Positions 25,827 to 49,997 of a DNA stretch of 64,000 bases are shown here, piece after piece. Made by a program: the position numbers and the translations under genes. The notes under the pieces are model-generated. The model made no database searches, was not told where the DNA came from, and saw only the letters and a program-made list of their open reading frames with translations. The stretch is from Patescibacteria group bacterium UBA6164 (GTDB lineage Bacteria; Patescibacteriota; Gracilibacteria; BD1-5; UBA6164): NCBI GenBank assembly GCA_002422305.1, contig DIUG01000068.1, positions 2,811 through 66,810 of the forward strand. Reading direction: 5' to 3'. Every line of letters begins with the position of its first letter. The stretch's first letter is position 1.

Positions 25827-25863
25827 AAGATTTTCTAAAAATATTTTTAGAAAATCTTTTTTT
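25827..25863 (+). terminator. rho-independent terminator
   Basis: 15-bp stem aagattttctaaaaa/tttttagaaaatctt followed by a T-run. Confidence 0.75.
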
Positions 25864-25981
25864 GATTCTTCCAATCAGCACATTTTTTACAATAGCCCAG
25901 TCAATTTTTAAAATCAACCCTGACAAACAGAAAAAACCGAATAAAATCACAAAACTATTTTATTTCTTTAATATAATATAT

Positions 25982-28186: not shown

Positions 28187-30368
28187 ATTTTTTAAAATAT
28201 AAATAAGTTCACAGTGCTGTTAATATCCAAAAAATCAAAAATCAAACAAGTATTAAAATATTACCATCAAAATCTAAAACTTTTTGTAAATCTCACTCTG
28301 GATTTAGGATTGTATGAATTAAAAATAAAAATACTATAAAGGTAAAAAGAAACCATTTTATCCTTAACTTTTTTTCATTAAATATATAAACTCACCATAA
28401 TAATCAAAAAGGAAGTAATGCAAAAAATACATCATTCACTATTCAAAAATATGCTATTATAAAAAATTTATAAAAAAATGATTCAGGAGAAAAAAGTAAA
28501 GTCAAAAACCAAAAACTAAGTCAAACTAAAAAAGTAATAAACAAAACTTTAAATACCAATTCTCAAGATAATATTTTTTTTTCAATTTTATCATTTTTAG
28601 GTTTGATTCTTAAAACATTTCAAAATAACATATTTGGTTCCAGTCAAACACTTCTTCCACTTGAAGCGACTATAGTTGCTAATAAAAATCAAATAGGAAT
28701 ATTTTCTATTTTTATATTTTCTTTTTCTTTTGATTTGTTTAAAAAGTATAAAACAAAATCTTTAAAAAATGTTATGAGTCATAAGATAAATATCATAATG
28801 ATTATAGTTAATAATCATTTAACTGATAATATATCAAAATCATCAACAGTTATTTGTCATATAATTCACAAGAATAACAATCATAATATTATCCATATTT
28901 TATGTTCATTTTTATGTAAAAAAGAAGAAATTTTATCATCTATTTCAAGTAATTTTTTATATTTTCTTTTTTCTAATAATTTTCTTAAAAAATGATTTAT
29001 TTTTAAAAAAGGTGTTTTAAGGATCAAAGTAGTGAAATCACTTAACTTTTTATTTATATTATTTTTTGTTGCTACTTTTTCAAAGTATGAGTTAAAGAAT
29101 TGAGCAGTAAAATAAAAAGTAATAAGGTATAATAAAGCAAGTATTATATTAAATCAAATCATAAAAGGATTTGTATTTATGTCTTTTGGAGATGCTATTT
29201 TTGATGCGAGTGGAAGGATATCATTTTTTGTAGGAATATAAGGAAAATAATAACCATCTTCATTAATCCCAATATTAAAAATATTAGATAAAATATTTTT
29301 ATTATTTATTAATCATTGATCATAAACATATTCAATTAATTTAGATATATTAAATAATATCTTATTTCATGAAATAATTTGAAAATTATTAAAATTTATA
29401 TCTATACTTACTCAATTCTCATTTTCACATTTACCTGTATCATTAAAATCATGACAAGAAAAGTTATCAAGAGATATAAAATTATTTCCAAATTCTTGAG
29501 TTTCTCAAATATAAAATAATTCATCTTTTTGATTTAAATATAAATTTCATTTATTAATATTAAGAGGAATTGAATTACTAGCATTTCTTAAAATAAGACT
29601 ATAAAATATATTATCTGTTATATAGTCATATAAATCATTTTTATTATTTTTAATATGAAATACATATCTATTTTTTTCTTTATCAAGATATTTATTATAA
29701 AGACTCATATAATCATGACCTTCATAATGAAGAAAATTAATAAAATCATTTAAAAAATATTCATTATTATATTGATTAATATCAACTTTATTCCAAATTT
29801 CTCAAAAACTTTTATAATCTTTTTTAATTAATGAAACTAAAATTTCTTTTTTTTCTTCATTATTTGTTTGAAACCCAAAATGAGTATTAATTAAATATGT
29901 TAAAGTTTCACTTATACTACAATCAAAAATAATAGTATTTCATATAATTTTAGTTAAAGTATCATTACTACAAAAACTTTGCCAATTATCTCAATTTGAA
30001 TCTATTTTTAAATATTCATCAAAATTATCCAAATGATATTGTAAATATTTATCTACAATATCTCATTTATAGAATATAATATTTACTTTATCTCAAACAT
30101 ATTTTATTTCTGTTTTAATTTCTCAAACATTTTCCCAGAAAAGTATATTTTTTCATCCATATGCTTTTACTAAAATTTCATAATAGTTTTTATCATATTC
30201 AACTAATAATTTTCATTTTTCTACAAACTCAAATTTGGTAAAAGCATTAATATATGGGCTTTCAGGGGCATATAATCTATATTCTTCATCATTTATTATT
30301 TGAGTATCTCAATAAGAAAATGAAAAAAATCAAAAAAACAAAACAAAAAATAGCAATAATTTTCTCAT
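28173..30368 (-). CDS. large membrane protein: signal peptide, ~440-aa extracytoplasmic domain, C-terminal multi-TM region (731 aa)
   Basis: Every 60-nt line was reverse-complemented and read in frame from ATG at 30368 to TAG 28173-28175 with no TAA/TAG. N-terminus MRKLLLFFVLFFGFFSFSYG. Confidence 0.7.
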
Positions 30369-30390
30369 AAAAAGAAATAAAAAAATAAAA

Positions 30391-31071
30391 TTATTTAAAC
30401 TTTTTTAACACAATAGTCATACTTGAAAAAAATAAATAAAAAGTTTTCATCAAAATATAAAATGGCATTTTTATTATTTCTATAATAAAATCAACTGCTG
30501 AATATATTGTAAAAATAAAAAAAAATTTAATAACTTTTCATAGTTCTTTTATTGATGATATTCATTCATGTACTTCCTTTTTCTTTTTTCTTTTATATTG
30601 AAACATCTCTATATCAGAAAAAGCATCTTCATTTATTTTATCTCTTACAAGTTTTGAATAATATAAAAATCCATGATAAACTCATTCTCAAACTTCTTTT
30701 TTTACTCATTTAATAGAAATAAATAATTGTCTAAAACTATCATCTAAATAATTTAAAATATCTTTTTGTCATAATTTTCTTGATTCTCTATATGAATAAT
30801 AAAGATATATAGGAAATAAAAATCAAATAATATTAGCAACCATATCTCATAAACTTGCTTCTCAAAATCAAAGTAAATCTATAAATTCTTTAAATAATCA
30901 TATCATTATTGTATCTCTAAGAGCAAAAGCAAATGCATAAGATCAGTTTTGTTTATTCTGAATAAAATAATACCTAACAATAAAATCAAAAATCAATATA
31001 AATGCACTTACAATTATATGTTTTTGTTTATCATTTTGATAGAAAAAATCTATTATTAAAGAAAAATCCAT
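30391..31071 (-). CDS. multi-pass membrane protein (226 aa)
   Basis: ATG at 31071 to TAA 30391-30393. Hydrophobic segments throughout. Confidence 0.55.
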
Positions 31072-31099
31072 GTTTAATAAATTAGGAAATATTTATAGA

Positions 31100-31612
31100 T
31101 TATTTATTATTATTTTCAATATATTGAATTGTTTTTTTTGTACTTTTTATCTCTTTAATTATTTTATACAGCCTATAAGGTCATACAAATCCTCATATAA
31201 TACAAGAAAATGCTAACTTAATTACTTTTTTCATAATTAAAGAAATTATTGATTCATTTACTACTATTTCTATAGTATTAGGGTCTTTTAATGAGTTTAA
31301 AAAACTCCATCAAAATCAAACAAATATGGTAAAATAAGTGATAAAAAATATCTTTAAATATCATTCCATATTAAATGAAAAATTTCTTTCATTAGTAATT
31401 TGATAAACATAAAATAATGATACCAAACTTCATATTAAAAAATATTTTATTATATCTGTATAGTAATTCTTGATATCAAGATTTAATGCTTTTAAATTAC
31501 ATTTATCACATACAGGTATAGTAAATTGATTAAAACAATCTTTACATAATCACACAGAACAATATTTACAAGTTCAAATTGTGTCTTTATCTCCATGTTT
31601 ATAACATTTCAT
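31100..31612 (-). CDS. B-box-type zinc-finger membrane protein (170 aa)
   Basis: MKCYKHGDKDTIGTCKYCSVGLCKDCFNQFTIPVCDKCN followed by 3-4 TM segments. Confidence 0.6.
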
Positions 31613-31625
31613 AATAAAAAATAAT

Positions 31626-31820
31626 AAAAAAATAAGATAAGCAGATTTGCTTATCTCATAATTGTTTATAACAAAGTGGAGAAAGCAACCCTGCTTACCC
31701 AATCTTGAATGATTTTTAATAATTCGTAAAAAACTGGAAGGTTACTTTCTCCAGTTTAACTACGAAATTAAATACAATAAAAACCTGCCATTATTGGCAT
31801 CACAAGATGTGGTAAGCAAA
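31626..31820 (-). ncRNA. unclassified structured RNA (~190 nt), stand-alone sRNA or riboswitch-like leader of the membrane-protein operon
   Basis: Relatively GC-rich. Closing helix ugcuuacc..aucuug / caagau..gguaagca. Internal hairpins gcca-auaa-uggc and uucgua[cuggag...cuuccag]uacgaa. A 14-nt alternative pairing joins uggagaaaguaacc and gguugcuuucucca. G:U pairs occur only in minus-strand sense. A terminator hairpin plus U-run lies at 31626-31656. Confidence 0.65.
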
Positions 31821-31823
31821 AAG

Positions 31824-31851
31824 AATATACTTTTTTATTTTAAAAAGTCAA
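31824..31851 (-). promoter_or_regulatory. sigma70-like promoter for the structured RNA
   Basis: On the minus strand: TTGACT (31851-31846), a 16-nt spacer, TATATT (31829-31824). This places the start at the first base of the closing helix. Confidence 0.5.
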
Positions 31852-31960
31852 CAAAAACCACTTAAATAACTGCTTTAAAAGTAATTTTATACACATTTAT
31901 TTTGCATTTTAAAAAAATAAATGCTACAATATACACATATAAAAGTAATATATCTTTCTT

Positions 31961-33871
31961 ATGTGAATTGAAACTTCAACATATGATACTAATGAGACTC
32001 TGTCTACTCTAGAAACTCAAAATAATACTCCTCTATCAAATGAAGAAATAGAGGATATTTCTGTTTCAAGAATGTTATACAAAGAAAGACTTGCTTTAGT
32101 TGAACAAAGAGCAAAAGTAAAAGATGAAAATTATGACAGAGCACAAGATTTATTAAAAGATTATCCTCATCAAAACAATTTCATAAAATATAATGGACTT
32201 TTTTACAGAGATATAATAAGTGTTGATTTTTGAGAGTCAGGCAGACCTTTTGTAATTTATGTTCCAAAATTTTCAAGACAAGATTTAGAAGAATATATTA
32301 CTGATTTTGATAAAGAACAAGAAAACTTAAAAAGTATTGAAAGACTTTTAAGAGATAATCCAAATAATCAAACTTTTTATGAATTAGATGGAAAATATTA
32401 TACTTCAAATCCAAGTAGAGTTCCTTGAAATAATATAAATGCTATTTTAAGAGTCAAACAAGTTTCCAGAACTCACCTTGAAGCAAAAGTTGAAAGTATA
32501 GAAAAATGAAGTATTGAAAGTATTTCTCTGCAACTTGATAGAGCAATAGCAAATACAAATAATTGAAACATAAGAAATTATTTAATGGATTTAAGGATTT
32601 GAATCAGTTTAAATGGAAACAATGATTTAATACTTACTTTTTGAGAAAGAATTTGAAGTTTAATAAATCTACTAGAAAAGTCTGAAGTACAACCTCTTAG
32701 TATATCTGAAATATGAGAAATAATGTTACTTATTTTTAATATTCTAAGAAGTTGAGTAAGTGATTGAATTAGAATAATGATATCACTCATAAAAGATGTT
32801 AGTTCAAATAAACTTTATAAATTTTGAGAAGAAGATAGTGAATATGAAAAAATTATTAGAGAAAGTTTTGAAACTGGAAATATTTGAGTTGCTATTTCAT
32901 TTTTAGAAAAGATTTTTCCTACAAACTTTGTAGAGTGAGTAAGAGAATGATGAATTGATACTGCTTCACTTCCTCTTGCAATTTGAGCAGGGTGAATTGA
33001 TGGTTTTTTAGATTATATACAAGCAAGTGTTGATATAGTTGTTATTCCAGATACTATTATTCAAAATATATGACAACTTAGTGCTGAAATTTATAGAAAT
33101 GGAGGAGATTTAATAAATGAACTTGCTAAAAATTTTACAAAAGTAAGTGATTATATGTATGTTTTATCATATATAGTTGCTGTTGTATTATCATTTAAAG
33201 TTTTACCTTCAAAATTTTGAATTCTTGCTTTACCAAATGTAATTATGAGATGATTACAAGCAAGTTGAAAAATCCCTGCAAATATGCTTGGATGAGTAAA
33301 TAATTTTTTAACAAATAATATTCAAAAAATTGAAGTATTAGTAAATAACAATATAAAATGAGTTACTATTAGTAGTGAAAAAATATGAACTTGAATCAAT
33401 ACAGCTCTCAGATGAAGTCAAAAAGTGAGAGATAGTGTTGATGGAAGTAATACTTTAATAAATTCTATTTGAGTAAATGCTAGACAAGTAAGAGCATCAA
33501 GAGAAGCACTTTCTATAACGAATAATTCACTAAAACTTGCATCTATTTTTTGAGAAAGTGTTGTTTGAAGAACAAATGAAACACTCACAACAAAAAATGC
33601 TATGAGTGCTTATAAAGAAATGATTTTAAAGTTAAATGGATTTAATAATGATGATATAGATGCACTTATAACTGAAACTAAATGAGAAGTAAGGTATAAT
33701 CTCGTTTTAATAAGAGAAAGACTTATGGAAGTGGAAGAGGTTATTGAGAGTGAGGTTTTGCCTATATGGAATAGTCGTGATAAATTAACATTAAATCAAA
33801 AAATTACTATATTAAGCCAAATGCATAAATATAGTGATTTATGAAAATTAATAATAAAAATGTTAATTTAA
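31961..33871 (+). CDS. large hypothetical protein (636 aa) with central hydrophobic segments and a variable C-terminal tip
   Basis: ATG 31961 to TAA 33869-33871. The C-terminal 60 aa before the tip are duplicated at 34564-34746. Confidence 0.6.
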
Positions 33872-33887
33872 TAAATAAATAAAATTA

Positions 33888-34493
33888 TTAATCTCAAAAA
33901 ATTTTCATTAATCATAAAATGAATATTAAACTATTTACTGTGTATTCATTAAAACGAGGGTCTTTTATTCAAATTCTTTCGATTTCTTTAAAATATTCAC
34001 TTATTACAATAAATAAATTTCAATTTTTATCTCTATCATAATAAAATCAACTTCAAACTTTTTCTCAATTTTTTAATCTTTTTTCAGTGTATTGTCTATC
34101 AGTAAACAATTTTTTACTAAGAATATTTCAAAAATTATCAATATCATATCATTTTATATCAAATATTGTTCTTCATAAATCATCTACATAAGCTGATAAT
34201 TCTCAATTTGATATCCTAATAGAATATATATTAGTTCAAGTTATTTCATTTAAAATTTTTTTATGTTCATCTATATTTTTTCCTAACTGCATAAGTTTAA
34301 TAATAGCACTTTCAAAAAAACACTTTTGTTCAGGATACTTTTCAATAAGTTTTTGTCTCAATTTTTCTACTAAAATCTCTTCATTTAGTTTTTCTCTTTC
34401 TTCTCTACTCCAATTAAAAGTATCTGCTATTTCAGGAGTTTCTAGATTTTGTTTTATTTCACAAGTTTGTGATGAAGTTTCTAAATTTTTCAT
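33888..34493 (-). CDS. hypothetical protein (201 aa), conserved N-terminus / variable C-terminus, cassette partner A
   Basis: Extends track ORF 34236..34493 through TGA to TAA 33888-33890. Convergent with 31961..33871. Confidence 0.55.
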
Positions 34494-34542
34494 ATTTTTT
34501 ATTATTTTTAATAATATTTATGAAATTGTATCATATTTTTAT

Positions 34543-34896
34543 ATGTTTTGCAAAAATTATGCTACAAAAAATGCTATGAATGTTTATAGAGAAATGATTT
34601 TAAAATGAAATGGATTTAATAATGATGATATAGATGCACTTATAACTGAAACTAAATGAGAAGTAAGATATAATCTTGTTTTAATAAGAGAAAGACTTAT
34701 GGAAGTGGAGGAGGTTATTGAGAGTGAGGTTTTGCCTGTTTGGAATGAGAATGAAAAAATATTAAATGAATGATTATTAGAAGGAGATAGTATTATAATT
34801 TATAACAACTTTAAAGAAAATATTATAAAAGATATAACAAAATATGATGAATTATCACAAATAATTTTTAGACAATTTATTTTAAAGACCCTTTAG
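34543..34896 (+). CDS. orphan alternative 3' cassette of gene 31961..33871 (117 codons)
   Basis: MFCKNY-ATKNAMNVYREMILKGNGFNNDDIDALITETKGEVRYNLVLIRERLMEVEEVIESEVLPVWN is followed by a different tail. Ends at TAG 34894-34896. Confidence 0.45.
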
Positions 34897-35404
34897 GTAA
34901 ATAATATATATAGATATACATATTAAATCTTGTACTTCATTCAGGAAAAAAAGTATTATCTTTAGGATTAAATAAAACAAATTTTCAATCTTTTTTTATA
35001 ATATGTGAATTTCATATTCTTCTACTAAGTAAATTTGCAAAATCATTATCAAAATCAAAACTTGAAATATCAAATAATGTATTTCAATTTTGGTCTAAAT
35101 AAGATAGTAAATCTCAATTAGATGCAAATAATAAAAATATATTACTATTTGTTACTTTTTCTATTGCTTCTAATTGTCTTTCATAATTTCATCACAACTG
35201 CATAATTTTAATAACAGCACTTTCAAAAAAACATTTTTGTTCAGGATACTTTTCAATAAGTTTTTGTCTCAATTTTTCTACTAAAATCTCTTCATTTAGT
35301 TTTTCTCTTTCTTCTCTACTCCAATTAAAAGTATCTGCTATTTTAGGAGTTTCTTGATTTTGGTTTATTTCACAAGTTTGTGATGAAGTTTCTAAATTTC
35401 ACAT
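34877..35404 (-). CDS. hypothetical protein (175 aa), cassette partner B (paralog of 33888..34493)
   Basis: The N-terminal ~70 aa are nearly identical to partner A (..NLETSSQTCEI.QN.ETP.IADTFNWSREEREKLNEEILVEKLRQKLIEKYPEQKCFFESA) and the C-terminus is unrelated. Overlaps the orphan cassette 3' end by 20 nt. Confidence 0.5.
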
Positions 35405-35515
35405 ATTTTTTATTATTTTAATAATATTTACAAAATTGTATCATATTTTTATATGTTTTGCAAAAATTATAGATTTCATTTTTAACTGAAAATAGAAATA
35501 TAAACAGATAGTAAC

Positions 35516-35541
35516 AAAAAAAGGCATAAATGCCTTTTTTC
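35516..35541. terminator. bidirectional terminator
   Basis: aaaaa-aaggca-taaa-tgcctt-tttt. Confidence 0.65.
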
Positions 35542-35709
35542 TTAAATACCAAATTCATCATCTCACAAAAATCATTCTAATTTATTTTCAAAATTCATCA
35601 ATCATTTTTCACTTAACTCAATTTTCTTTAACTCTATATCTTTTTTTGATACTCATTTTTTAAATTCATTAGATTTCTCTAACTCTTTCTTAATTTTAAT
35701 ATTTTTCAT
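35542..35709 (-). CDS. small charged hypothetical protein (55 aa)
   Basis: ATG at 35709 to TAA 35542-35544. Weak support. Confidence 0.3.
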
Positions 35710-36079
35710 AATAAACTTTTTGTTATTATGAAAAATAATTTCTCAAAGATCTTGTATTGAAAGTATTTTTCATTTATTAAATAAAATAATTTTTACACTT
35801 TTATAAAGACCATAAAATTATATAATTTTTATGGAAGATATTTAGGGGTAAATTGGGAACAATTGAAAAAAATACCATTTTCTTCAATCAAGAATTCTTA
35901 AAACTATATAGTTAGCATGATACAGAACATCTTATACCTTACTTTTATATATTATATTAAGATTTTTAAAAAAAATTGAGTTTTGTATATTTTTATTATT
36001 TATTTTTTATAGGTTTTTGATTTTTTTCAGAAAATTTATATTATATCCAAGTTAATTCTTATATTTTAATTTTATAAAT

Positions 36080-36334
36080 ATGGATAATAATTGATTAAAT
36101 GATATTTTAACAGGATTAATCACAAATTGACTTTGGGATTTTATAAAAGTTTTTTTAAAGTTTTTATTCTGAGGTATAATTTTATGATGATTATCATTTT
36201 TGGGATATAAATCATATAATAAAAATATTAAAATTTGAGATAGGACAAAAATTAAAAATAGTTTTAAATCAAAAATAAATCAAGATATTGAGATTTGAAA
36301 ATGAGTTGAAGTTGATGATAGCTTTAAATCTTAA
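36080..36334 (+). CDS. small single-TM protein (84 aa) overlapping the start of the STAND NTPase gene
   Basis: MDNNGLNDILTGLITNGLWDFIKVFLKFLFGGIILGGLSFLGY... Ends at TAA 36332-36334, giving a 20-nt overlap with the next gene. Confidence 0.45.
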
Positions 36335-39300
36335 AAATCTATTGATGAATAAAAATATACAAATATGAGATTTTGCAAGTGTAAAGGATAGTTTTAATAA
36401 CTATAAAACTATCAATATTTTATGATTCCAAAATATAAAATGATTTCTAAAACAAATAGATTGAAGAAAAAAAGAATTAGATTTACTTTGAGAAGATTAT
36501 TATATTTCTTTAGATTTTTCTGAGTGATGAAAAATTAATTCTATTTTAAATGAAGATAGATGTATTATTATTTGAAATCCTTGAAGTTGAAAAACTCAAT
36601 TATTAGTAGACATATTTTATAGAATAAAAAATAATTTAAATAAAAGATGGTGATTTTATAAAAACAATGAATTTTTACCTTTTTTTATATCCTTAAGAAA
36701 TTTATGAGAAAATAGTTTAGAAGGATATTTAGATGAAAAAATAACTAAATTTAATATCAAATGAGATCAAAAATTTATTTTACTTTTAGACTGATTAGAT
36801 GAAATAAATTTAGATAAAACAGCTGATATATTAGATTTTATAGAAAATAATCAAAATTATAAATATATAATTTCTTCAAGAAAAACTAGTAATAACTTAT
36901 GACAACTTTTATCTAAATATTCAGAATTCAGGCAATATACTATACAAGAATTTAATTTTGATATTGAAAAATGATGAAATACTCAAATTTTAGAAGAATA
37001 TTTTAAAAATAAATGAAAATTTATAAATTTAGAAAAGTATAAAAAATTACAAATAGAAATAAAAGATATCTTTTATTTAGAACAATTTTATGAAGTTTAT
37101 GAAAAATTAGAAGAAAAAGATTGAAAATTAGAACTAACTGAGAAATTTTTGAAAGAAATTTCTAATAAAAATAATGAATTAATAAAATTCGAAATTAATA
37201 CAGATGATTTATTTTTATTATTAACAAAAGTTTCAGAACTTTTATATAAGATTAATTCATTGACTTTAGAAAAAGAAAAAATACAAGAATTTATTAAATC
37301 TCTGTCAATTCAACAAAAAAAGAAAAAAATGTTTTTAGATTATATGTTAAAAACATTTTTTATTGAATCTGAATGAAAATATTCTTTTTACCATAAAACT
37401 TTTTATGAATATTTTTTAGTTAGATATATTTCAGAAAAATATTTGAAAAACAAATTAAGTATTAGAGAATGAAATATTTTACTTGATAATCAATTTATTA
37501 TAAAAATATTTTTTCCTTATTTACAAAGAAGTTATATTGAAAATGAAAACTATTCTTGAATTGTTGGATTGAATCTATTTATGCAATATTATTTAAGTCA
37601 TAATCCTATAGATGAAATTAATTCAGAAATTTTTCTAAAATGACTTTTTAATTTATCAGAAGATTTATTAAGGTATTATATTTTAGAAAAAACTTCACCA
37701 ATTTATCATTGGTTTAATAATTTTCATTATTTAAATTTTAACATTATAAAAATAGCTTTAGATAAATGATATAAGGATATAGCAAATGGTTTTTATAAGA
37801 AATTAAATGATTTGATAGAAGAAAAAACACAAGAAAGAAAAAATATTAAAGAAAAATTATGAAAATTAGACAAAAACGATGAAAAATATAATTTTAACAA
37901 GCATGAATTAGAACAAGAATTAGAACATTTATTTGATGGTATTAATTTCAAAGATCAAGCATATATAAATAAAAATCTGAATGAAAATATTAAATCTTAT
38001 TCTGATTTATATGAAAAGATAAAATCAAATTATGAAATAAATATTTATACAAGAATAGATTTTACTTCAAATTTTTTTGATTCACCTTATTATGCTTTTT
38101 TTGATAATCTATTAAAATATTGAAATAAAGAAGAAATTTTAAAAATAATAAATCAATTTGAAAAGGATGAATTTTATACATTTTTACAAGTTTGACTAAA
38201 ATTAGAAAATATAAAAAATATTTTGTGAAATCACAATATCTTAAATTTAATCAAAGAAAAATTTATTTTTTATAAATGAGATTTTAAAGAATTTATAAAC
38301 TATAATAAAGAAGATTTGAAAATAAAAGATAGTGCTATTACTTTATTTTTGAAATATATTTTTTGATTATACGAAGATGAAAAAGAAATATTTGAATCAG
38401 AAGATTTTAAAGAATTAAAAGAATGACATAATTGATTTTTTAATATCCATTGGTGATTTTATGAATCTAATATAAATAATTCTCAATTAGCTTCATATTT
38501 GTTTTATAATCAAGTAAATTTAAAAGAAATTGTTGAAAAAGAATTTATTTTCTCAAAAACTGAAACAGAAGAAGAAAGCATATTTAGGTATAAATATTGA
38601 TATAATATAAGGTGTATTTATCAATATAGTTATAGTATTTTTATTGATAGTATTTTAAAAAATGAAAAAATAATTTTTCAAGAATATATTGAAATAATAA
38701 AAAGCTATTCATCAATGAGATTAATGGATGATTTTAATATAAGAATAATTTATTCAGAAATTTTAGCATATATATTTTATTATAATATTGAATGAGATTA
38801 TTTTAAAAATATAAATCTAATTTGGGATAATTTAAGTGATTTTGTTGATGAAATTAATTTTTACAAAACATTACAGAAATTAGATGAATTAAATAAAACC
38901 AATAAATTATCAAATACTATTAATGAAGAAAAAATTATATTTTTAGAAAATAATATAGAGAAAAAGTTCGATTATCCTGCTTCAGAAGTAGAAGATTATA
39001 TTTTTATTTCTCAGTTATATTGATTAATCTGAAATAATGATTTACAAATTAAAAGTTTTGATAGTTGAATTGCACATTCTTATGTAAAATATTGATTTAG
39101 AAAAGATTACTATCTTACATATGTTTTTGAAATATTGGAAGAGTTAAAGTATAATTCTATAATTACAGAACAAGAAACATATCAATATTTAGATGAAATA
39201 ATTGATTTGTATTGAAAAATTGATTGAATTACTGAAAAATGAGTTGCTTATTTATGAAAAAATATAGTTAAATTTCTTTTAACATTTAGTTTTAATAAAG

Positions 39301-39983
39301 CTATAGAATATAAAAATAAGATAAATGAAATTAATTATAGTTATTATGATGAGATAGAAACTAGTATTTTAATTCAAAAAATAAATAATAATAATTTTAC
39401 AGATGATGAAATTGAAAATTTATATTTCTATGATACTAGAACTAGTTTATTAGAATTAAAAATATATTTGTATTTGGTTGATATTTGAAGAGATGACTTT
39501 ATAGAAAAGGTTAATGACTTATTAGTAGATATAGAAAAAGAAACTAATATTGATTATTATTGGAATAGTGAAGATTATGAAGTTTATAAAAAATTATATG
39601 ATTTATGAAAAATTAATAAATCTGAATCAATATTAAAAGAATTAGAAAAACCAGAGAGAGAAATAAATGAAATAATTTCTTTAAAAGATTTAAATGATGA
39701 TGAAGTAGTTAAAATTTTAAATGACAAAGTTTGTTATTGAATGTACCATACTAGTTTTTCATGAGATTATAATTATTTATTAAATGAATTATATATAAAA
39801 GATAAAAAATTATTTAATTCCTATATATCAAGAACAAATTTTAAATATGATGATAAATATGAATATGAGTTTTTTGCAAATATTCAGTGATTAACAAAAG
39901 TTTACATAGAAAATAAAGAGAGAGAGAAAGTAATTTTATTATTTGAGGAACTATTAAGTTTTTCTTGATTATTGATAAAATAA
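36315..39983 (+). CDS. NACHT-like STAND P-loop NTPase with long helical C-terminal region (1222 aa)
   Basis: Walker A IIIGNPGSGKTQLL, Walker B ILLLDGLDEI. Contains track ORF 37149..37376. Ends at TAA 39981-39983. The start could alternatively be ATG 36345. Confidence 0.7.
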
Positions 39984-40011
39984 TTACCAAAAATCTAAAC
40001 AATTAAATAAC

Positions 40012-42300
40012 ATGGATAAAACTTATTATAACAACAAAAAACATTTATTTATTAATGAAAATAATGAAGTATTAGAAAATATTTCATATTTTCAGTTTGC
40101 TTGAAATAAAATAAATATTAGGTTTAGTAATTGAGATAAAATTTATTCATATAAATCTAATTCCATAACAATTTTAAAAGATCCCAAAAATATAGATATA
40201 TATAGTAATTTATTTTATCTTGAAAAAACATTATTATTTAATATTAAAGAGGTTTTATATTTCTGAAATAAATATTATAGAGTGTTTTTAAAAGAATGAT
40301 GAGTTATTACAAGTGATAAAATCAAAATTATTGAAAATATTATGAAAGATGAAAAAGTATCTTCTATTATAGATTATTTAAAGTTAGTTTTAAATAATAT
40401 TGAAAATAATGAAGTAACAAAACATTTAAAAAGAGAATATGAAAAATTAGAGAATATATTACCAGGTAGTGTATTGTGAGATTTTCTTTTCAAAAAATTT
40501 ACAAATAAAACTAGCTACTTTAAACCGAAAGAATTAATTTATCCTTTCAATTTTAATCTTAGTCAAAAGAGAGCTCTTGAAAGTGTTTTTGATTCCAATA
40601 TATCTGTTATTGAATGACCTCCTTGAACTTGAAAAACTCAAACTATTTTGAATATAATTGCAAATCTTGCCATAATGCAAGATAAAACTATTGCTGTAGT
40701 TTCAAATAATAATTCTGCAATAGCAAATGTAAGAGAAAAATTAGAAAAAGATTGATATGATTTTTTTGTTGCAATGTTAGGAAATAAAGGGAATAAAAAT
40801 ACATTTTTTTCTAATATTCCTGAACTAAAAGAATTCAAAAGTGATAAAGATTGAAATTATACTTCAAAATTAGAAGAGATTTCTAATTTAATGAATATTG
40901 ATAATGAGAAGCAGAAAATAAAACTTGAATTATCAGACTATATTTTAGAACAAGAACATTTTGAAAACTATTTTAAAAAACAAGAAATAAACGAATTATT
41001 TAAATTACCAATTTGGGCTAAAAATTCAGATAAAATAATGAATTTTCTAGTTTTAAATTCTAAAAAATCTAAAAAATGAAAAAATAAATGATGGTTGTAT
41101 AAGATAGAGCTTTTCATAAAGTTTTGATTTACTGAATTTAAAAAATTAGACACAAGTGAAATAGATCTTATTTTATCGTATCAAAGAAAATTTTATGATT
41201 TTAAAATATGAGAATTAATGGATTTATTATCTGAATTAGATAAAAAACTTCAAGATAATAAGTATGAGAATTTAGTCTCTGAATACATTAAGTTTTCTAA
41301 AATATTCTTTGAAAACAAACTTAATTCAAAATTTAAAAAATTTAAGTGATTAACTTTTTCTTCAAAAGATATTTTTAATTTATCTTCAGGTTTTACAGAA
41401 AGATTTCCTGTAATTTTAAGTTCAACCTATGCTTTATTAAACTCTATACCGAAGTGATTTTTATTAGATTATGTAATAGTTGATGAATCTTCTCAAGTTG
41501 ATCTTATTACAGGTATCCTTATTCTTTCATGCTGTAAAAATGTTATAATTGTATGAGATAGGAAACAACTTACTCATATTACAAATTGAGAAAAGGTAAG
41601 TGTAAGTGTTGATGAAGATTTTGATTATTATAAGCATAATATTTTATCATCTGTTTTAAATATTTATAAAGATAAGATTCCAATTACACTCTTAAAAGAA
41701 CATTATAGATGTCATCCAAAAATAATTAATTTTTGTAATCAAAAGTATTATAACTGAGAACTTATTATTTATACATCTAAATGAGAGAATACAAATCCGC
41801 TTGTTATTTATCGTAGTGCAGAATGAAATCATATGAGAAGTATAACTCAATGAGATAGTACTTGAAAATATAATCAAAGAGAAATTGATATTATTCAGGA
41901 TATTTTATTGAGTAATAAAGAAAATTTTACTGAAAAAGATGACATATGAATTATAACTCCTTTTAGAAAGCAAGTAGAAAAATTAAATAGCATAATTTGA
42001 GAAACTATAGATATTGATACTGTTCATAAATTTCAATGAAGAGAGAAAGATATTATTATTTTTTCTACAGTATTAGATAACTCAAAAGATTGAAATTTAA
42101 CTCTTAAATTTGCAGATCAACCAAATCTTATAAATGTTACAATTTCTAGAGCAAAAAATAAATTTATAGTTGTTACTGATAATGACTTATTTTTTAAAAG
42201 ATGAAGAGAAATTAAAGATTTTGTTAAATATGTTGAATATAGTTCTTTAGATGAAAACATTAAAAATAGTGAAATAGTTTGAGTATGATCTTTTGTATAA
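40012..42300 (+). CDS. SF1 (Upf1/DNA2-like, AAA_11/AAA_12) helicase (762 aa)
   Basis: IEGPPGTGKTQTILNIIANLA, VIVDESSQVDL, LKEHYRCHPKIINFCN, VHKFQGREKDIIIFS, INVTISRAKNKFIVV. Contains track ORF 40891..41079. Confidence 0.85.
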
Positions 42301-42762
42301 AAATTATTCAGATAAAATATCTATTAGTTTAGATAGTATAGAAAAAGTTTCTATACATGATTCTGAAAATATTTGAAATGCTTTAATTAAAGATATTTTA
42401 ACAAATCATGAAGAATTTACTAATTTAGACTATAGAAGAGAATATCATTTAAAATTTCTTATAAATGATACAAGCAAATTAAGTGATGTTGAGATACTAC
42501 CAGTGATGTTGAGATAAAATTTTTAAATAATAACTCAAGAATTGATTTTCTTATTTTTGAAAAGTTTTGAAAAACACCTATACTAGTTATTGAAGTTGAT
42601 TGAGTTGCTTTTCATGAAAATAATTTAGAACAAATTGAAAGAGATAAAAAGAAAAATAGTATTTTAGAAAAATACAATATTCCTTATTTAAGATTATCTA
42701 CAAATTGAAGTTGAGATAGAGAGAAAATAATAGAAAAATTAAAGTTATTAATTTATGAATAA
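42278..42762 (+). pseudogene. DUF2726-like C-terminal domain detached from the helicase by a +1 frameshift and a 20-bp tandem duplication
   Basis: FEYDLLYKNYSDK... reads in the +1 frame from 42278. agtgatgttgagata is repeated at 42482-42496 and 42502-42516. The final segment ...IDFLIFEKFGKTPILVIEVDGVAFHENNLEQIERDKKKNSILEKYNIPYLRL ends at TAA 42760-42762. Confidence 0.6.
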
Positions 42763-42763
42763 T

Positions 42764-42791
42764 AAATACTACTAATTTTAGTAGTATTTTT
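42764..42791 (+). terminator. rho-independent terminator
   Basis: aatactac-taatttt-gtagtatt followed by a T-run. Confidence 0.65.
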
Positions 42792-42880
42792 ATTACCTAT
42801 TCTTTTTTTGTATAGAATATTTTTTGTCTTACTTTTATATAAACATTTATTACTATAAAAAAAATAACTTATAAAAATAA

Positions 42881-43091
42881 AGTTCTAAAAAAGACTTGCT
42901 TATAGATTAAGTAAGTCTTTTTATTGTATTTAAATGATTTAGTTTGTATTTTTCTTTTTTCTTCTGTAGTACTCCATTGGTTTTCATTGATATTTATAAT
43001 ATTCAATAAAATCTTCTTTATATAGACCATTAATATCATATTCAATAGTTCATTCAAAAAAAGTTCTCAATTCTATTATTGTGCTCCACCA
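42881..43091 (+). repeat. ~212-nt junction repeat R1, ending in the tmRNA 3' core GCTCCACCA
   Basis: Aligns with 49998-50211 and 57097-57309. Has an internal hairpin aagacttgctta/taagtaagtctt and is followed by its own small terminator hairpin (43106-43133). Confidence 0.8.
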
Positions 43092-43153
43092 TTTTTTTAT
43101 TGATTATTAAGCGAAAAAACTCTATATTTTTTAGAGTTTTTTGGTTTTTAAAA

Positions 43154-44101
43154 TTATACATTTTCAATTATTCAATACTTAAACATATTACAATCATATC
43201 TTGGTAATAAATATTTATTATTAATTATATCATCTGTTTTAATATTTCTTGGTTCTACAATAAAAGAATATTTTATATTTGAATTTTCTAATTTTCTAAC
43301 AGTTTCTATATTATATGAATCTTTTCATCAATAAGGATAACAAAAACAATCAATTTCAGAATTAATGATTTTGCTTAAAAAATTATTTGATTCATCAATT
43401 TCATTATTTAACTCATTATAGCTAAAATTAGACAATAAATGATGAGATTCTGCATGTCATCAAATTATATTTCATGCATTTTTAATCTCACTTATTTGAT
43501 TTTCATTTAAATATAATTTTTCCCATATAATATCTATTGGATCTCAAAAAATACTTATTAATTTATCTAAAACTATAGTTTGAGTATCCAAATTTAAAGA
43601 ATAGTTTATTTTTTTTATAATAAGTGAATATTTATCCATTTCTTGTTCAGAATATGCAATTCTATTTTCTATTTTTTTTATTTCAGATTCTAAATTTAAA
43701 TTTTTTAAGATATCTACAAATTTTTCATAAATATTTTTTGAATTAAATCTTCACAATAAATAATGTATTTTATGAACATTTAATATACTTCTATCTCTTA
43801 ATTGCTTAGTTCATACAAAAAATATTCACCATAAATTTCTTTCTTTTAAAATAGGAAGTACATATTTATAATGATCTATTAATCAATCATCAAATGTTAA
43901 TATTATTCAAGTTGGAACATTGGTTTTATTATTTATAAAATTAATCCAATCCTCTTTTCTTACAAATCAAAATTCTTTTTCAAAAAAATCTAACTGTTTT
44001 TTAAAATTATCAATACCTAAATACTTAAGTCATGGTATAAAATCAGAATTAATTCTGATATAATGATACATTATTGCTTTACATCAATTTTTATTATTCA
44101 T
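43154..44101 (-). CDS. polysaccharide deacetylase (NodB/CE4 family)
   Basis: IILTFDDGLIDHYKYVLPILKERNLWGIFFV, GGHAESHH, FCYPYGG. Confidence 0.75.
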
Positions 44102-44105
44102 AAAA

Positions 44106-44666
44106 TTAATTTTTAAATTTTCTTTTAAGTATTCCAGTATTTTTTGATACTCTTTCTGAGGTTACTTTAGATATTGAAGATAATATATCTGGTGCTTTTT
44201 CTCAACAAGTTTGATTAATAAATTCATTCAATGTATCTTGAACAATTTCTTTTCTTGACCAAAAATTAAGTCATCAGCCATCTATATTTAAATTATTAAC
44301 TTTTTTGATATTTTCTCACTTATAAATTGGAATAAGATGAAAGTGAAGATGTTTTGAATTTTCTCAAGAATTTAATGATATAATATTTACTCTATCAATA
44401 TTTACATCACATTTTTTTATTGTTACACATGCTTTATTTAATAATATTCCTAATTCTATAATTACTTCTTGAGGCAATATACAATCACTGATGTCATTAA
44501 TATGTTTACCTATATCATTTATTAATTCTTTTTTTAAAATTAATAAACAATGAAAATCACACAATGGGTTTATACTGTGTACAAATTCCCAATATTTCAA
44601 TGTATTATCAATCTGTTGTTCTTTATTAGGAAATGAACTTTTACAAAATATACAATTTTTTTTCAT
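44106..44666 (-). CDS. HIT-family nucleotide hydrolase/transferase
   Basis: MKKNCIFCK... and the histidine triad HLHFHLIP. Track ORF 44364..44720 is trimmed to ATG 44666 and extended through TGA. Confidence 0.65.
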
Positions 44667-44695
44667 AGTACTTTTATAATATTTAATAATATATT

Positions 44696-45844
44696 CTATT
44701 TCTGAATAGAAGTATTCCAAAATTCTTCTGTCTCAATTATTTTTATAAATCTTTCTGTCTCAATTATTTTTATAAATCTTTCTCATGCTTTTCAATCACC
44801 AAAAGTTAAACATTTAGGATATATTTTATTTTCTTCCCATAATTCATTAATTTTGTTTTTAACTTCATCTGAATCATAGTTAACATTATGAATACTTTCC
44901 CAATTATTTCTATTATTTTGTCTTGTTCATATATTTACAGTCGGTACTCAAAGTGTTGGTGCTTGTCTAACTCAAGCACTAGAATTTCAAACAATACATT
45001 TAGAACTTTTTAATATAGTTAAAAAATCATTAAAAGGAATTGAGTCAAATATTCTATAAGATTCTTTAAATTTCTTATCAATTATATATTTGTTAAAATA
45101 TTTTATAACAATATCAGAACTAGGATCATTATTAGGATATATAAGTATAAATTTTTTATTAGATTGTATTAATCCATCTAAAACATTAATGCAATGTTGC
45201 TCAAAACTTGATGTTTCAGTAGTAACTGAGTGGAAAATAAATATTCAGTATTTTTCAAAAGGTATATCATATTTAATTTTAAGTTCATCTATTTTAGATA
45301 ATTCATCTCAAAACATTACATCAAAATCTGGAGATCATATAGAATATATATTTTCTCTTTTTTCTCACATTATTTCTAACTTGTCAGCAGATTTATCATT
45401 TGCCACAAAATGTACATGTGAAAGTTTAGATATAAAATGTCTAACTGATTCATCAATACTACCTGAAGATTCTCATCATTCTACATGTGCTACAAGAGTA
45501 TTTGTAAAAGATCAAGCAATTACTCAAGCTAATGCTTCAACTCTATCTCCATGAATTACTATTAAATCTGGATTAATTTCATGAATATAGTGAGATAGAT
45601 TTATTATAGTATTTGCTATAACTATTTCCTGCTTTTCTCAAACATGTTGATTTATATTTAGATAAACATTCTGATGATTTTCATCTAAAATCTCTTTGAA
45701 AGTAAATCAATACTTTCAAAGCATATGCATTCAAGTTACAAATACATAACTCTCAAAGCTATAATGTTTATCGACCTCTCTTATTAAAGATCTTATTTTT
45801 CAATAATCAGCTCTCGTTCATGTAAGAAATAAAATTTTCTTCAT
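44696..45844 (-). CDS. neuC: UDP-N-acetylglucosamine 2-epimerase (hydrolysing), NeuC-type
   Basis: [61 protein letters not shown]. Has a C-terminal in-frame 27-bp duplication. Confidence 0.8.
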
Positions 45845-45855
45845 TTTTAGATATC

Positions 45856-46914
45856 TTAATTATTTAAATTAATATCACTATAAGATAAGTGTGTGTCAGT
45901 ACATATATCTTTAGACGATTTTTTTCATAAAATTTTCTCAAACTCTTCTGCTCTTATCTCTCATGTTCCAGGTCTTTTAACCCAAATATTTTCATTTGAA
46001 AATATTTCTCATTTTTTAATATCTTTAATTGTTACGACTGTTGCAAAAGCAAAGTTTATACAAGGTTCTTCTTCTTTTACAGGTCATTTAGATCATCATC
46101 TACATTTTGCAATTATTTTACTTCATTCAATTAATTCTTTTAAATCATTTTTATCCATAGAACATATAATATCAGGTCATATTCTATCCATAGTATCAGT
46201 AAAATGTCTTTCCAATATAGATGCTCCTAAAGCTACAGCTCATAAACATGCATAATTGGAAGTAGTGTGATCAGATAATCATATAACAGCATCTGAAAAT
46301 CTTTCTTCTAACTCATTTAATGCTCATAATCTTACTAATTCTGGAGGAGTTGGGTATACATTAGTACAATGTAACAAAGCATAAGGAATATTAGCATCTC
46401 TAATAATATTTACAGCTTTTTCTATACTATTTAAATCGTTCATTCATGTTGATAATATTATTGGTTTTCAAAAAGATGCTACATGTTTTATTAAAGGATA
46501 GTTATTACATTCTCAACTACCTATTTTATAAGCAGGTATATCAAACTTTTTTAATCTTTCAGCAGCAGCTCTAGAAAAAGGAGTGCTAATAAATATCATT
46601 CACTTTGATTTTACATAATTCATCAATTCATATTCATCATCTTCATTTAAAGCACAAGATTCCATAATTTCATATATAGAAATACTTGCATTTCAAGGAA
46701 TAACTTTTTTAGCACTTGAGCTCATTTCATCTTCAATGATATGTGTTTGATGTTTTATAACCTCTGCTCATGCTTCATATGCAGCATCAACCATTTCTTT
46801 AGCAATTTTTAAAGACCCATTATGGTTAATTCAAATTTCAGCAATAACTAAAGGATCTGATTTTTCAGATATTAATCTGTTTCAAATATAAAAACTAGGT
46901 ATTATTTTATTCAT
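45856..46914 (-). CDS. neuB: N-acetylneuraminate (nonulosonate) synthase
   Basis: [50 protein letters not shown], LSDHT, and a C-terminal SAF-like domain. Confidence 0.85.
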
Positions 46915-46972
46915 AATATTTATATATATTCTAAATTAGATTTATTTATAGTTATTTTTAAATAAAAGTCAA

Positions 46973-47005
46973 CAAAAAAAGGCATTACAAATAAAATGTA
47001 ATACC
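46973..47005 (-). terminator. rho-independent terminator
   Basis: On the minus strand: gguauuaca-uuuuauu-uguaaugcc followed by a U-run. Confidence 0.6.
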
Positions 47006-47022
47006 TCATGAAAATTTAAATA

Positions 47023-47583
47023 TTATATATTTTTAAATATTTTATTTTTTAATTCCTCCTCTTTTCATAAAAATATTTCTCTTAAAACTTCTAAAGCAAA
47101 TTCTTGAACTCTAAACTTTGGATTAGCTACTATACATAAAAAGTCAGACCAATTCATAACTTTTATTTTTATCTTTTCTCAAGCGTCTAAGTTTTGTTCT
47201 TGAATTTTATTACAATTTCTGGCAATAAATATATTGCTTTTATGATCTATTCTAGAAGATCTAGTATAAGATCAAAATAATTCCCAATCATCACTTTTAA
47301 GTCAAGTTTCTTCTAATAATTCTCTTTTAGCAGTTTCAATTGGAGTTTCTCAATCTTCACATGTTCATCCGACTAATCAAAAAAAAGGTTCTCTTCAAGG
47401 ATGTTGTTCTTCAAGAATATAAATATTGTTATTCTTATCTATTGCTACGATATCTACACTATCGTTTCTTTTTAGCTTTTCAAAAACTTTTTTACTTCAA
47501 TCAAACATTTCTTGTTCCCATTGATATACATCAAATGATTTTCAACTAAAAACTTTTTTAGCATTTTCAGGTATTCATGCCAT
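47023..47583 (-). CDS. NUDIX hydrolase
   Basis: Nudix box GGTCEDGETPIETAKRELLEETG. Confidence 0.75.
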
Positions 47584-47643
47584 AATAATAATTTTAAAAA
47601 ATAAGTATTTGAATTATAATAATATTTTTTTTATAATCAAAAT

Positions 47644-48441
47644 TTAAATAAAAGTTTTTTCTGCTTCTAATACAAATTTAACTAACAAATCTCATTTTAA
47701 TTTACGAGCCTTTACTATTGTTCTAATGTACTTTTCTTTCCATGCTTTTTTACTTTGAATAGGATTAAAATTAGGCAATTTTATATCTAATAATTTTAAT
47801 TCAGGAAAAACAGCAATTAATTTATCTAAAAAGAAAAACCATCATAATATAAATTCTTCTTGATTAATTCATTGGTTATGAGGTAAATATAAACCATTTT
47901 GTTCAATATATCATGAAACACTTATATCTAATCAATCTTGATAAAATTGTCCTAAAGAAAATCATTCACGAACTTTTGTTGATGATGTAGAAATTATTGG
48001 ATTTATTTCTACTAATTTTATTCATTTTTTTGCGGAAGTATTATGTGCTCCATCAAGATTCTCAAATTCAGGTCTACAAATCATTCAAAAAGTATCTCAC
48101 GAATTTCAATATATCTCCATTTCACGTATTGCTTTATCAGATCAACAGATGTTTATAACATTCCTTCAATATTTCTTTCTTAAATCTAGTAATTCATCAA
48201 TATGTCATCTTACATTTTGTCTTTGGATATCTATAGGAAGACTATATTGAGCTAGATGTATCCTTATCATTTCTAAACGTTCTTCTAATGAAGCTATTGG
48301 TTCCTTTTCTCAGATAAATTTTACTATTACATATAATTGTGACAAAGTTAAGGTTTCTATAGCACTAATCATAGCACTAATATGACCTTTATGTACAGGA
48401 TCAAAAACTCACCTAATAACTCATATATTTTCGTTTTTCAT
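47644..48441 (-). CDS. cytidylyltransferase-fold nucleotidyltransferase (NadD-like) with C-terminal extension
   Basis: GVFDPVHKGH near the N-terminus and ISSTKVRE. Confidence 0.6.
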
Positions 48442-48518
48442 ACATATATTGATTTTTAATAAATTTTAGTTATTATATAATAAAGTCATAAAAAATCAAT
48501 TATTAATAATAAGTATAA

Positions 48519-49836: not shown

Positions 49837-49997
49837 AAAATTATTAACTAATAATTCATAATGATAAACAAATCCATAAAATGATATAACTATTAATAAT
49901 GATTATACTAATTATTCATAATAATTGATAAAAATATATAAATACATTTATTATTTTACATTTATGAAATTGATAAAAATATAATACTAAAAAATAT

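Follow-up and report, generated by a model that had tools for sequence, protein, structure and literature searches.

In this work we describe a two-gene locus on the forward strand of a 64,000-nucleotide stretch of contig DIUG01000068.1 (assembly GCA_002422305.1) from Patescibacteria group bacterium UBA6164; this whole stretch is referred to below as the window. The first gene encodes an 84-residue effector-like protein with a single hydrophobic segment (36080-36334) and the second a NACHT-like STAND NTPase of probably 1212 residues (36345-39983), the two proteins sharing an 18-residue motif that lies in the C-terminal tail of one and at the extreme N-terminus of the other. The pair is followed on the same strand by the gene of a Upf1-like helicase (40012-42300) and by detached pieces of a DUF2726 nuclease-like domain that extend to 42762. 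The genome assembly (G000) consists of 76 contigs with a total of 1.45 Mb and a completeness of 94%, and the nearest named relative of the organism is a Candidatus Gracilibacteria metagenome-assembled genome (MAG).

The gene content of this region depends on how TGA is read. The G+C content of the window is ~20%, and translation with table 11 was rejected as yielding no genes here, there being no open reading frame (ORF) longer than 154 aa within 30000-50000. Long frames are open throughout the window once TGA is treated as a sense codon (tables 4 and 25), and TGA then accounts for ~4% of codons, for example 49 of the 1231 in the STAND frame. This share is too high for tryptophan, and a table 4 reading, although it keeps the frames open, would place tryptophan even at the glycines of the P-loops: the Walker A motif of the STAND NTPase, GNPGSGKT, is encoded as TGA-AAT-CCT-TGA-AGT-TGA-AAA-ACT and that of the helicase, GPPGTGKT, as TGA-CCT-CCT-TGA-ACT-TGA-AAA-ACT, with all three glycines written TGA in each case, and the glycine of the STAND Walker B motif LLLDGLDE is likewise encoded by TGA. 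Because these invariant glycines are written TGA, table 4 was rejected in favour of table 25 (TGA = glycine). The table 25 ORFs cover 36080-36334 (84 aa), 36288 or 36315 to 39983 (1231 or 1222 aa) and 40012-42300 (762 aa), so that the three genes of the original prediction stand where it had placed them, provided that TGA is read as an amino acid (tables 4 and 25), and its 28-nt gap between the STAND and helicase genes is correct.

The start of the STAND gene had to be revised. Its frame is open from 36288 to the end at 39983 and holds ATG codons at 36315 and 36345, the first of which had been taken as the start, giving a 20-nt overlap with the small gene. Seven of eight database relatives begin at, or no more than two residues from, the position aligned to 36345 (MNKNI...; five with MNK or MSK, two with MFNNK), the exception being P0010, which has a longer N-terminus. 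A scan of species-representative genomes identified one close locus (L005, in a Gracilibacteria MAG, with a STAND protein 72% identical to that of the window) together with 15 distant ones, and in L005 an in-frame TAA immediately precedes the ATG aligned to 36345. From the starts of the relatives and this stop codon, ATG 36345 is the more likely start judged by sequence comparison, which replaces the overlap by a 10-nt gap and gives a protein of 1212 rather than 1222 aa.

The small protein consists of a long N-terminal helix containing a glycine-rich hydrophobic segment at residues 24-42, followed by two 18-aa repeats. Its Kyte-Doolittle 19-residue maximum is 1.93, reached over residues 24-42, and AlphaFold2 (AF2) models its orthologue in L005 (P0011) as a single helix from residue 3 to 48 (predicted local distance difference test, pLDDT, 76-87) with an unstructured tail at residues 49-84 (pLDDT ~40), in support of the single-transmembrane protein that had been predicted. 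It has no family in Pfam, PADLOC or NCBIfam, and a look-up of P0011 in the ESM Atlas returned feature scores that were all <=0.85 and structural neighbours that are generic single membrane helices, none of it above noise. Seven relatives of the same layout were recovered, four by word search and three by exhaustive profile search. The ORF is conserved as a protein, with 64-82% identity and invariant columns, and most members carry an acidic second residue (an M-D or M-E start). One member, P0013, equals P0011 with tryptophan at the TGA codons, and hence the nine small proteins represent eight distinct sequences.

The motif occurs three times at the locus. Two copies make up the tail of the small protein, r1 NKNIKIGDRTKIKNSFKS at 36218-36271 and r2 NQDIEIGKGVEVDDSFKS at 36278-36331, separated by a linker of two residues and the second ending at the stop codon, and the third, r3 NKNIQIGDFASVKDSFNN at 36348-36401, forms residues 2-19 of the STAND protein, where a degenerate fourth unit, clearer in L005, may follow. 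The pattern N..I.IG.{4}[IV]..SF, which was derived from these same three copies, has three matches in the six-frame translation of the genome (2.89 million residues), all of them within 140 nt spanning this gene junction. When the tail is aligned locally with the N-terminal 30 residues of the STAND protein, the score is 55, which none of 5000 shuffles reaches (maximum 45), while the next best among the N-termini of 980 genome ORFs is 39. The corresponding comparison within L005 scores 54, again reached by none of 5000 shuffles, and suggests a second, weaker receptor unit there. Among 18 loci a paired terminal motif is found only in L005 besides the window (score 56, against 13-32 elsewhere); a search of 17 distant NACHT loci for an upstream partner with a common terminal motif found none, and most distant NACHT relatives have N-terminal extensions of 57-320 aa fused to them. 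Synonymous differences among the repeats show that they do not stem from a recent DNA duplication.

The two tail copies are of opposite charge. In the window r1 is basic (net charge +5) and r2 acidic (-3), and this polarity holds in nine of nine small proteins (eight distinct sequences), with net charges of +3 to +7 for r1 and -2 to -6 for r2; aligned in register, the two repeats show 30 opposite-charge and 11 same-charge positions. Relative to the proteome the motif is rich in asparagine (14.8% vs 8.4%), slightly raised in Q, G, V and I, and contains no proline or leucine (0% each). Together, these comparisons support, at the level of sequence, a motif-mediated coupling of the small protein to the N-terminus of the STAND protein that is tighter than the original prediction had seen.

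The NTPase core of the STAND protein corresponds to the Pfam NACHT match at residues 72-221 (36558-37007; pLDDT 65-84), with Walker A at 36573-36596 and Walker B at 36780-36803. A Walker A motif GxxGxGK[ST], a Walker B motif hhhhDGhDE and a following S/T-R sensor motif are hallmarks of NACHT domains, and the equivalents here, GNPGSGKT (residues 77-84), LLLDGLDE (146-153) and ISSRK (176-180), are invariant in nine sequences, including residues N78, P79, S81, K83, T84, D149, D152 and E153. The core is followed by an all-helical C-terminal region of ~800 aa (37545-39980), a presumed sensor solenoid defined from AF2 secondary structure of low confidence. The original proposal of a STAND NTPase of NACHT-like type whose long C-terminus is helical is supported by the invariant Walker motifs and by NACHT being the best Pfam match, the helices coming from AF2. 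The AF2 model as a whole is weak (pLDDT 58.4, predicted template-modelling score 0.30), with residues 1-62 disordered (pLDDT <40). Its top Foldseek matches are Avs4 and Avs3 (E 5e-6 to 4e-4), followed by TPR, PPR and HEAT proteins, at template-modelling (TM) scores of 0.1-0.2, and these model-based matches support the general architecture only. The C-terminal region matches no Pfam repeat family, and a profile of the STAND family found nothing among the sequences of solved structures at E up to 1.

No named system was recognised. Searched against PADLOC-DB 2.0, the STAND protein matched only mad8 (8e-5, in the P-loop region) and no Avs model, and against the NCBIfam antiphage models it reached 14 bits with HyoA, for which the cut-off is 1200; no other recognisable effector domain was found in it with Pfam, PADLOC or NCBIfam. 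In agreement with the earlier statement that the combination is not a named system, PADLOC-DB 2.0 and NCBIfam gave no full-length match for either protein of the pair.

Relatives of the STAND protein are few. Besides itself, nine full-length sequences were found in a collection of 5.8 billion proteins, all of which show tryptophan where the window has TGA-encoded glycine and hence come from organisms that read TGA as glycine. The gene was present in one of 61 related genomes and in one of 401 genomes of the class, each time the window's own, which marks it as accessory. Sixteen loci were obtained by tblastn with matches to STAND residues ~80-375, and six of eight distant relatives tested pass the Pfam NACHT cut-off. 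Scans of metagenomes and of viral sequences for STAND loci each gave one distant NACHT relative, and the JGI contig of the family member P0005 was not returned. As a separate observation, two distant NACHT relatives, L004 on an IMG/VR contig and L010 in a Tenericutes MAG, have identical first 90 residues, one of the two contigs being classed as viral, and in four others (L009, L013, L020 and L012) an M-[DE]-type hydrophobic helix is fused directly to the NTPase.

The pair itself is conserved beyond the window. In L005 the small orthologue, also of 84 aa, runs from ATG 7761 to 8015, directly upstream of the STAND start at 8025. There the junction reads TAG, two codons, an in-frame TAA and the ATG of MNKNI, with a 9-nt spacer and the same relative frame, whereas in the window it consists of TAA and a 10-nt spacer with a shifted relative frame. 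With a different stop codon, spacer and relative frame at each locus, the two genes are unlikely to be joined by a conserved read-through or frameshift, and the split is old, which answers in the negative the question, raised with the original prediction, of whether the ORFs at 36080 and 36315 are one gene in relatives. Downstream of the L005 STAND gene lies an unrelated gene on the other strand and no helicase. Two more small/STAND pairs are probably represented by P0013 with P0003 and P0014 with P0004, whose longest source contigs have equal lengths (4075 and 5247, respectively); linking by length in the same way gave no further partners for P0015, P0016, P0027 and P0012. Data of a separate study (run X5, record 17) contain a 6.5-kb contig of ~86-93% nucleotide identity that also covers the start of the small gene and the STAND gene. 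The conserved unit is therefore one of two genes, the small protein and the STAND protein, and not of three.

It was also observed that in the X5 contig the segment equivalent to window positions 36148-36431, where the membrane segment, both repeats and the N-terminal motif copy of the receptor (its tag) are encoded, is replaced by 249 letters, 33 nt shorter and too diverged to align, and the tag region may evolve faster than the rest.

This layout is close to that of amyloid-signalling pairs in which an NLR (NOD-like receptor) controls an effector. Multicellular fungi and filamentous bacteria were the organisms to which such signalling was linked first; a role in phage defence in E. coli was shown only in 2024. 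According to Ibarlosa et al., Bab is a 109-aa effector with an N-terminal hydrophobic helix that has a ~20-aa motif in common with its sensor Agp, and the two mediate abortive infection in E. coli (10.1101/2024.11.07.622273). In a wider survey by Dyrka et al., 91% of effector/NLR pairs are collinear and 57% lie within 10 bp; two effector repeats face one receptor repeat in BASS1, BASS6 and the fungal HRAM; BASS motifs are enriched in N, Q, G, V and I and depleted of K, P and L; and other NLRs occur in all-in-one forms (10.1101/2020.01.06.895854).

Set against these descriptions, the locus resembles Bab/Agp (BASS11) in having a small effector (84 aa, compared with 109) whose N-terminal part is a hydrophobic helix and whose C-terminus carries a motif of about 20 aa, an adjacent collinear sensor of more than 1000 aa with the motif at its extreme N-terminus, and a setting in a mobile or defence island. 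It differs in that Bab has a folded helical Babybell domain of ~85 aa, whereas the window protein offers ~46 residues modelled as one helix, and in that Bab has one motif while the window protein has two charge-complementary repeats, the motif sequence differing as far as a comparison by description can tell. With the Bell/NLR pairs of BASS1-10, as they are described, it shares collinear genes with a gap of <=10 nt (10 nt in the window, 9 nt in L005), the motif at the effector C-terminus and at the N-terminus of the NACHT or NB-ARC protein, two or three pseudo-repeats in some effector families and one in the NLR, and a motif poor in P and L and enriched in N, with G, I and V only slightly raised here. 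The BASS motifs, however, are ~25 aa long, depleted of lysine and reported mainly in filamentous Actinobacteria and Cyanobacteria, whereas the motif of this Gracilibacteria-type organism is 18 aa long and rich in lysine, a Bell domain could not be detected in the small protein, and the sensor has no recognisable TPR or WD array.

Two further comparisons concern layout. In the HET-S/NWD2 pair of Podospora anserina (HRAM), two effector pseudo-repeats likewise face one in the NLR. Further parallels are that the repeats of the HET-s β-solenoid carry complementary charges and that an N-terminal membrane-inserting helix acts as the executioner, as proposed for the window protein. HET-S differs in its HeLo domain of ~220 aa and in its 21-aa repeats with a flexible loop between them, as opposed to the 18-aa repeats and two-residue linker of the window protein. 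Avs3 and Avs4 (PDB 8dgc and 8dgf) resemble the receptor in that a STAND NTPase is followed by a long alpha-helical sensor, although the TM scores are only 0.10-0.20 with a model of pLDDT 58, and Avs proteins have fused N-terminal nucleases or other effectors where the window has a separate partner.

On balance, we lean towards reading the locus as a two-gene receptor/effector pair that resembles the NLR/effector amyloid-signalling (abortive-infection) pairs, carried on an island at the tmRNA gene. It was the collinear arrangement, the hydrophobic helix, the terminal tags, the two repeats facing one and the disorder of the tags that led us to a templating mechanism, and the observations made here comprise the gene order, the kept split, the uniqueness and significance of the motif, the complementary charges of the repeats, the hydrophobic helix, the NACHT-type motifs and the island. 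What we infer by analogy is that the receptor oligomerises, that a beta or amyloid template forms, that the membrane is damaged and that the trigger comes from a phage. In such a mechanism the receptor would be the 1212-aa STAND protein, with its unstructured N-terminal tag, P-loop NTPase switch and helical sensor of ~800 aa, and the executioner would be the 84-aa protein, one long helix with a glycine-rich membrane segment and two copies of the tag. A trigger, probably a phage component, would be bound by the sensor, upon which the NACHT domains would oligomerise and gather several N-terminal tags. The gathered tags could then fold cooperatively into a stacked beta (amyloid-like) template able to recruit and convert the tails of the small protein, whose oppositely charged r1 and r2 may stack as two rungs, an arrangement that their charge complementarity fits. 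Clustering of the helices would disrupt the membrane, and the infected cell would die (abortive infection).

Several findings weigh against this interpretation. The pair was seen as DNA in only two loci and one partial contig. Within the receptor family P0002, P0005 and P0007 have a shortened tag without IG, and P0006 and P0009 (52-62% identity) have no NKNIxIG in their first ~25 residues, which are N/Q-rich at the start and show alternating hydrophobics. A fused all-in-one form was sought in P0010, where a BLASTP segment lies at the expected place but with E 0.26, while hhalign aligned another region with 1% probability, and this candidate was rejected. The motif is rich in lysine (16.7% vs 10.4% in the proteome), where BASS motifs are depleted of it, and in the AF2 monomer models the repeat tags are low-confidence coil (pLDDT ~40), which is neutral on a templated fold. 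The IQIG of the motif resembles the core of RHIM; neither the small nor the STAND protein matched the Pfam RHIM family (E up to 0.1). Homology of the small protein to Bell or Babybell domains was not detected, and its ~46 aa before the repeats compare with ~100 aa for Bell. Finally, the assignment of the NTPase is below threshold: although NACHT (PF05729) is the best family, it scores 20.8-20.9 bits (E 3.5e-4) against a cut-off of 26.7, and two of nine family members match it at E<=0.01, the database sequences scoring lower because tryptophan stands at their TGA codons. The variation among receptor N-termini suggests, from sequence comparison, that tags may be swapped within one receptor family.

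The main rival explanation accepts the shared motif but not the templating: the motif would be a simple heteromeric beta-strand tag by which the STAND protein is permanently held at a small membrane anchor, so that the receptor works at the membrane and the small protein itself does not kill. The sequence evidence for a shared motif applies equally to such docking, the lysine content and shortness of the motif are atypical for BASS, and the small protein amounts to little besides a single membrane helix. As the STAND family has no other recognisable effector domain, however, a pure anchor would leave the system without an output, and two repeats facing one, together with complementary charges of r1 and r2, are what stacked-rung templating predicts. 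Bab/Agp, the closest architecture studied experimentally, works by templating. We consider docking of this kind unlikely, although it is the alternative that survives best.

A different question is posed by the gene downstream of the pair, which the original prediction had joined to it as the third part of a conflict module. The ORF at 40012-42300 (forward strand) encodes 762 aa of an Upf1-like SF1 helicase (Pfam AAA_12 5e-33, AAA_11 9e-18) and is truncated before its nuclease domain. In another genus of the same family (G017) an 80%-identical gene forms one ORF of 908 aa in which helicase and DUF2726 are fused. Relative to G017 and the X5 contig, the window has a 2-bp deletion near 42284-42285, after which the linker and the N-terminal third of DUF2726 lie out of frame (+1) at 42293-42517, and, at about 42482-42501, a 20-bp insertion that partially duplicates the 15-base word AGTGATGTTGAGATA in tandem and is absent from both. 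Deletion and insertion add up to +18 bp, which brings the last piece back into frame 0: the C-terminal two-thirds of the endonuclease-like domain at 42487-42762, of which 42487-42759 matches Pfam DUF2726 (E 1.4e-12, positions 47-123 of 126). The detached DUF2726 tail is thus confirmed and traced, through frames 0, +1 and 0, to two frameshift lesions relative to the intact orthologue of G017. X5 has TT at the first site and lacks the 20 bases at the second, and its helicase-DUF2726 gene is therefore intact. In the probable source sample (X1, ~5-fold depth) a contig without differences spans the deletion site and ends 8 nt beyond it, whereas X1 and X2 do not cover 42356-42582 and hence the site of the insertion, so that an independent assembly supports the first lesion but not the second.

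The helicase is no member of a named system. Its PADLOC matches are partial and confined to the helicase core (MkoC 1e-58, MkoA 6e-49, Hhe 2e-20), and with NCBIfam it scores 97 bits for Hhe in the window and 90.5 in the intact G017 form, against a cut-off of 2000, and 122 for ProA against 1500. It resembles Hhe and the Mokosh proteins MkoA and MkoC in that an Upf1-like SF1 core is joined to an endonuclease-like domain, but this domain is DUF2726 and not PLD or Vsr.

That the small membrane protein, the STAND protein and the helicase-DUF2726 nuclease act together as one three-gene system appears improbable. It is suggested by the 28-nt gap between the STAND and helicase genes, which lie on the same strand with no terminator-like site between them, by the adjacency of the STAND gene and an intact helicase-DUF2726 gene in X5 at ~86-93% nucleotide identity, and by the partial matches to the defence helicases MkoC, MkoA and Hhe. 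X5 is so close a relative, however, that adjacency there reflects shared ancestry and not independent conservation. The L005 pair is followed by its unrelated opposite-strand gene and no helicase; the intact 908-aa gene of G017 has different neighbours, and a STAND match looked for in that genome was not found; and in the window two frameshifts have cut off the nuclease domain while the pair is intact. Among the relatives, all three components are adjacent only in X5, and an obligate three-part module is therefore not supported. Of the corresponding claim for the helicase, its identity as an Upf1-like enzyme with DUF2726 stands (AAA_12/AAA_11 and DUF2726), but its partnership with the STAND protein lacks support. 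The helicase-DUF2726 gene is a separate single-gene module, inactivated here, to be annotated as a decaying module of its own, so that the locus does not add a new three-gene system to the count. Separately, just upstream of the intact gene in G017 (L022, 377-1135) lies a 252-aa ORF with a Cthe_2314-like HEPN match (23.1 bits, below the cut-off of 27.1); this ORF might act as a partner to the helicase-nuclease there and has no counterpart in the window.

The receptor/effector pair, to which we now return, sits on what looks like an island. A tmRNA gene (ssrA) lies at 9372-9817, and a junction repeat (repeat families D2 and D4) at 42858-43066 has copies at 49975-50183 and 57166-57283, ~7.1 kb apart, a pattern consistent with serial island insertion at ssrA. 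The position of the first repeat places the pair at the distal end of the first island, which is ~33 kb long, and the only terminator-like hairpin in 35400-43200, at 42888-42922, lies within this repeat. The pair might also have a role other than phage defence, such as cell-cell conflict, control between episymbiont and host, or an addiction module stabilising the island. Pointing that way are the Gracilibacteria-type organism with its 1.45-Mb genome, from a group described as host-dependent (PMC11452946), and the duplicated cassettes of unassigned proteins just upstream of the pair. The bacterial NACHT, Avs and Bab/Agp proteins that have been studied are antiphage systems, and we judge a non-phage role to be still less probable than a three-gene system.

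Least probable of all is a fission relic, in which a stop codon would have split an ancestral helix-repeats-NACHT protein and left the motif as a leftover tandem repeat and the small ORF without a signalling role: the three copies are indeed nearly tandem (starts 36218, 36278 and 36348), in P0010 the NTPase follows directly on a longer, hydrophobic N-terminus, and all-in-one NLRs exist (10.1101/2020.01.06.895854), but the split is kept at 72% STAND identity with different stops, spacers and frames, the small ORF shows protein-level conservation (64-82% identity) with basic/acidic polarity in nine of nine members, the N-terminus of P0010 has no significant homology to the small protein, and an origin by fission, which has been proposed for such pairs, is in any case compatible with signalling.

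If the pair does signal by templating, its kind of system is already known, and what would be new here, judging from the sequences compared, is the motif, the minimal effector and the lineage. More tentatively, and with slightly less than even confidence, we propose that the locus represents a new family of 18-residue I-x-I-G amyloid motifs and the smallest NLR-controlled death effector known to date, a single glycine-rich membrane helix whose two oppositely charged repeats would form a HET-s-like two-rung beta-solenoid when seeded by the receptor tag, in an ultra-small episymbiont that reads TGA as glycine. A literature search, whose scope did not extend to the supplementary tables of the BASS papers, found no paper joining amyloid signalling with Patescibacteria; PMC8195603 and PMC10907252 hold amyloid-signal and candidate-phyla-radiation terms together, in the former as unrelated mentions, and the main text of a 2026 STAND survey does not mention amyloid. 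Should the proposal be true, prion-like immune signalling would not be tied to multicellular or large-genome bacteria and an effector of ~85 residues would suffice for it, and a pair with such logic in a candidate-phyla-radiation bacterium of 1.45 Mb would mean that the principle reaches even the most reduced of known bacteria. An 84-aa effector with an 18-aa tag would also provide a very small system for studying how templating opens a membrane-active helix.

The genetic code bears on how such loci are detected. In genomes that read TGA as glycine, standard pipelines miss such systems: in the database copies both the P-loop and the motif have tryptophan in place of glycine, and they match no defence model. 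Proteins from such genomes that were predicted with TGA as tryptophan also introduce tryptophan into profiles, which is a general trap for family searches in code 25. The profile search with the small protein is a case in point: of its 21 matches at E<=0.001, five were examined, of which three small ones are true relatives, while two long ones (P0018 and P0021) are DUF285/BspA-like proteins with FNQDIGxWDTS repeats, false relatives that were drawn in because the profile carries tryptophan at TGA positions. The other 16 matches, long and in multiple stretches and including P0017, lay outside the five examined.

Upstream of the small gene, a promoter-like element (TTGATT, 16 nt, TATTAT) lies on the forward strand at 36017-36044. 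It matches nine of 12 positions and falls within a block of ~44 nt that is, by eye, conserved upstream of the L005 pair, but it is weak, and promoter-like sites were no commoner in the scan than in shuffled sequence (88 found vs a mean of 88.8), so that the scan carries no statistical weight here.

Further features of the same island lie upstream of the pair. A tandem duplication at 33590-35470, with units of ~910-975 nt (repeat families D1, D3 and D5; 87-91% identity), repeats the C-terminal end of a 636-aa protein (31961-33871) as an orphan 117-aa ORF (34543-34896), and it also repeats the N-terminal half of a minus-strand gene (33888-34493 vs 34877-35575). The proteins of this duplication match no Pfam family, and its layout recalls, by analogy, the cassette arrays of polymorphic toxins and their immunity proteins. 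At 24014-27232 are a DUF2779 protein (E 8e-28) and an AAA/Torsin-like ATPase (a weak match), both of which look accessory.

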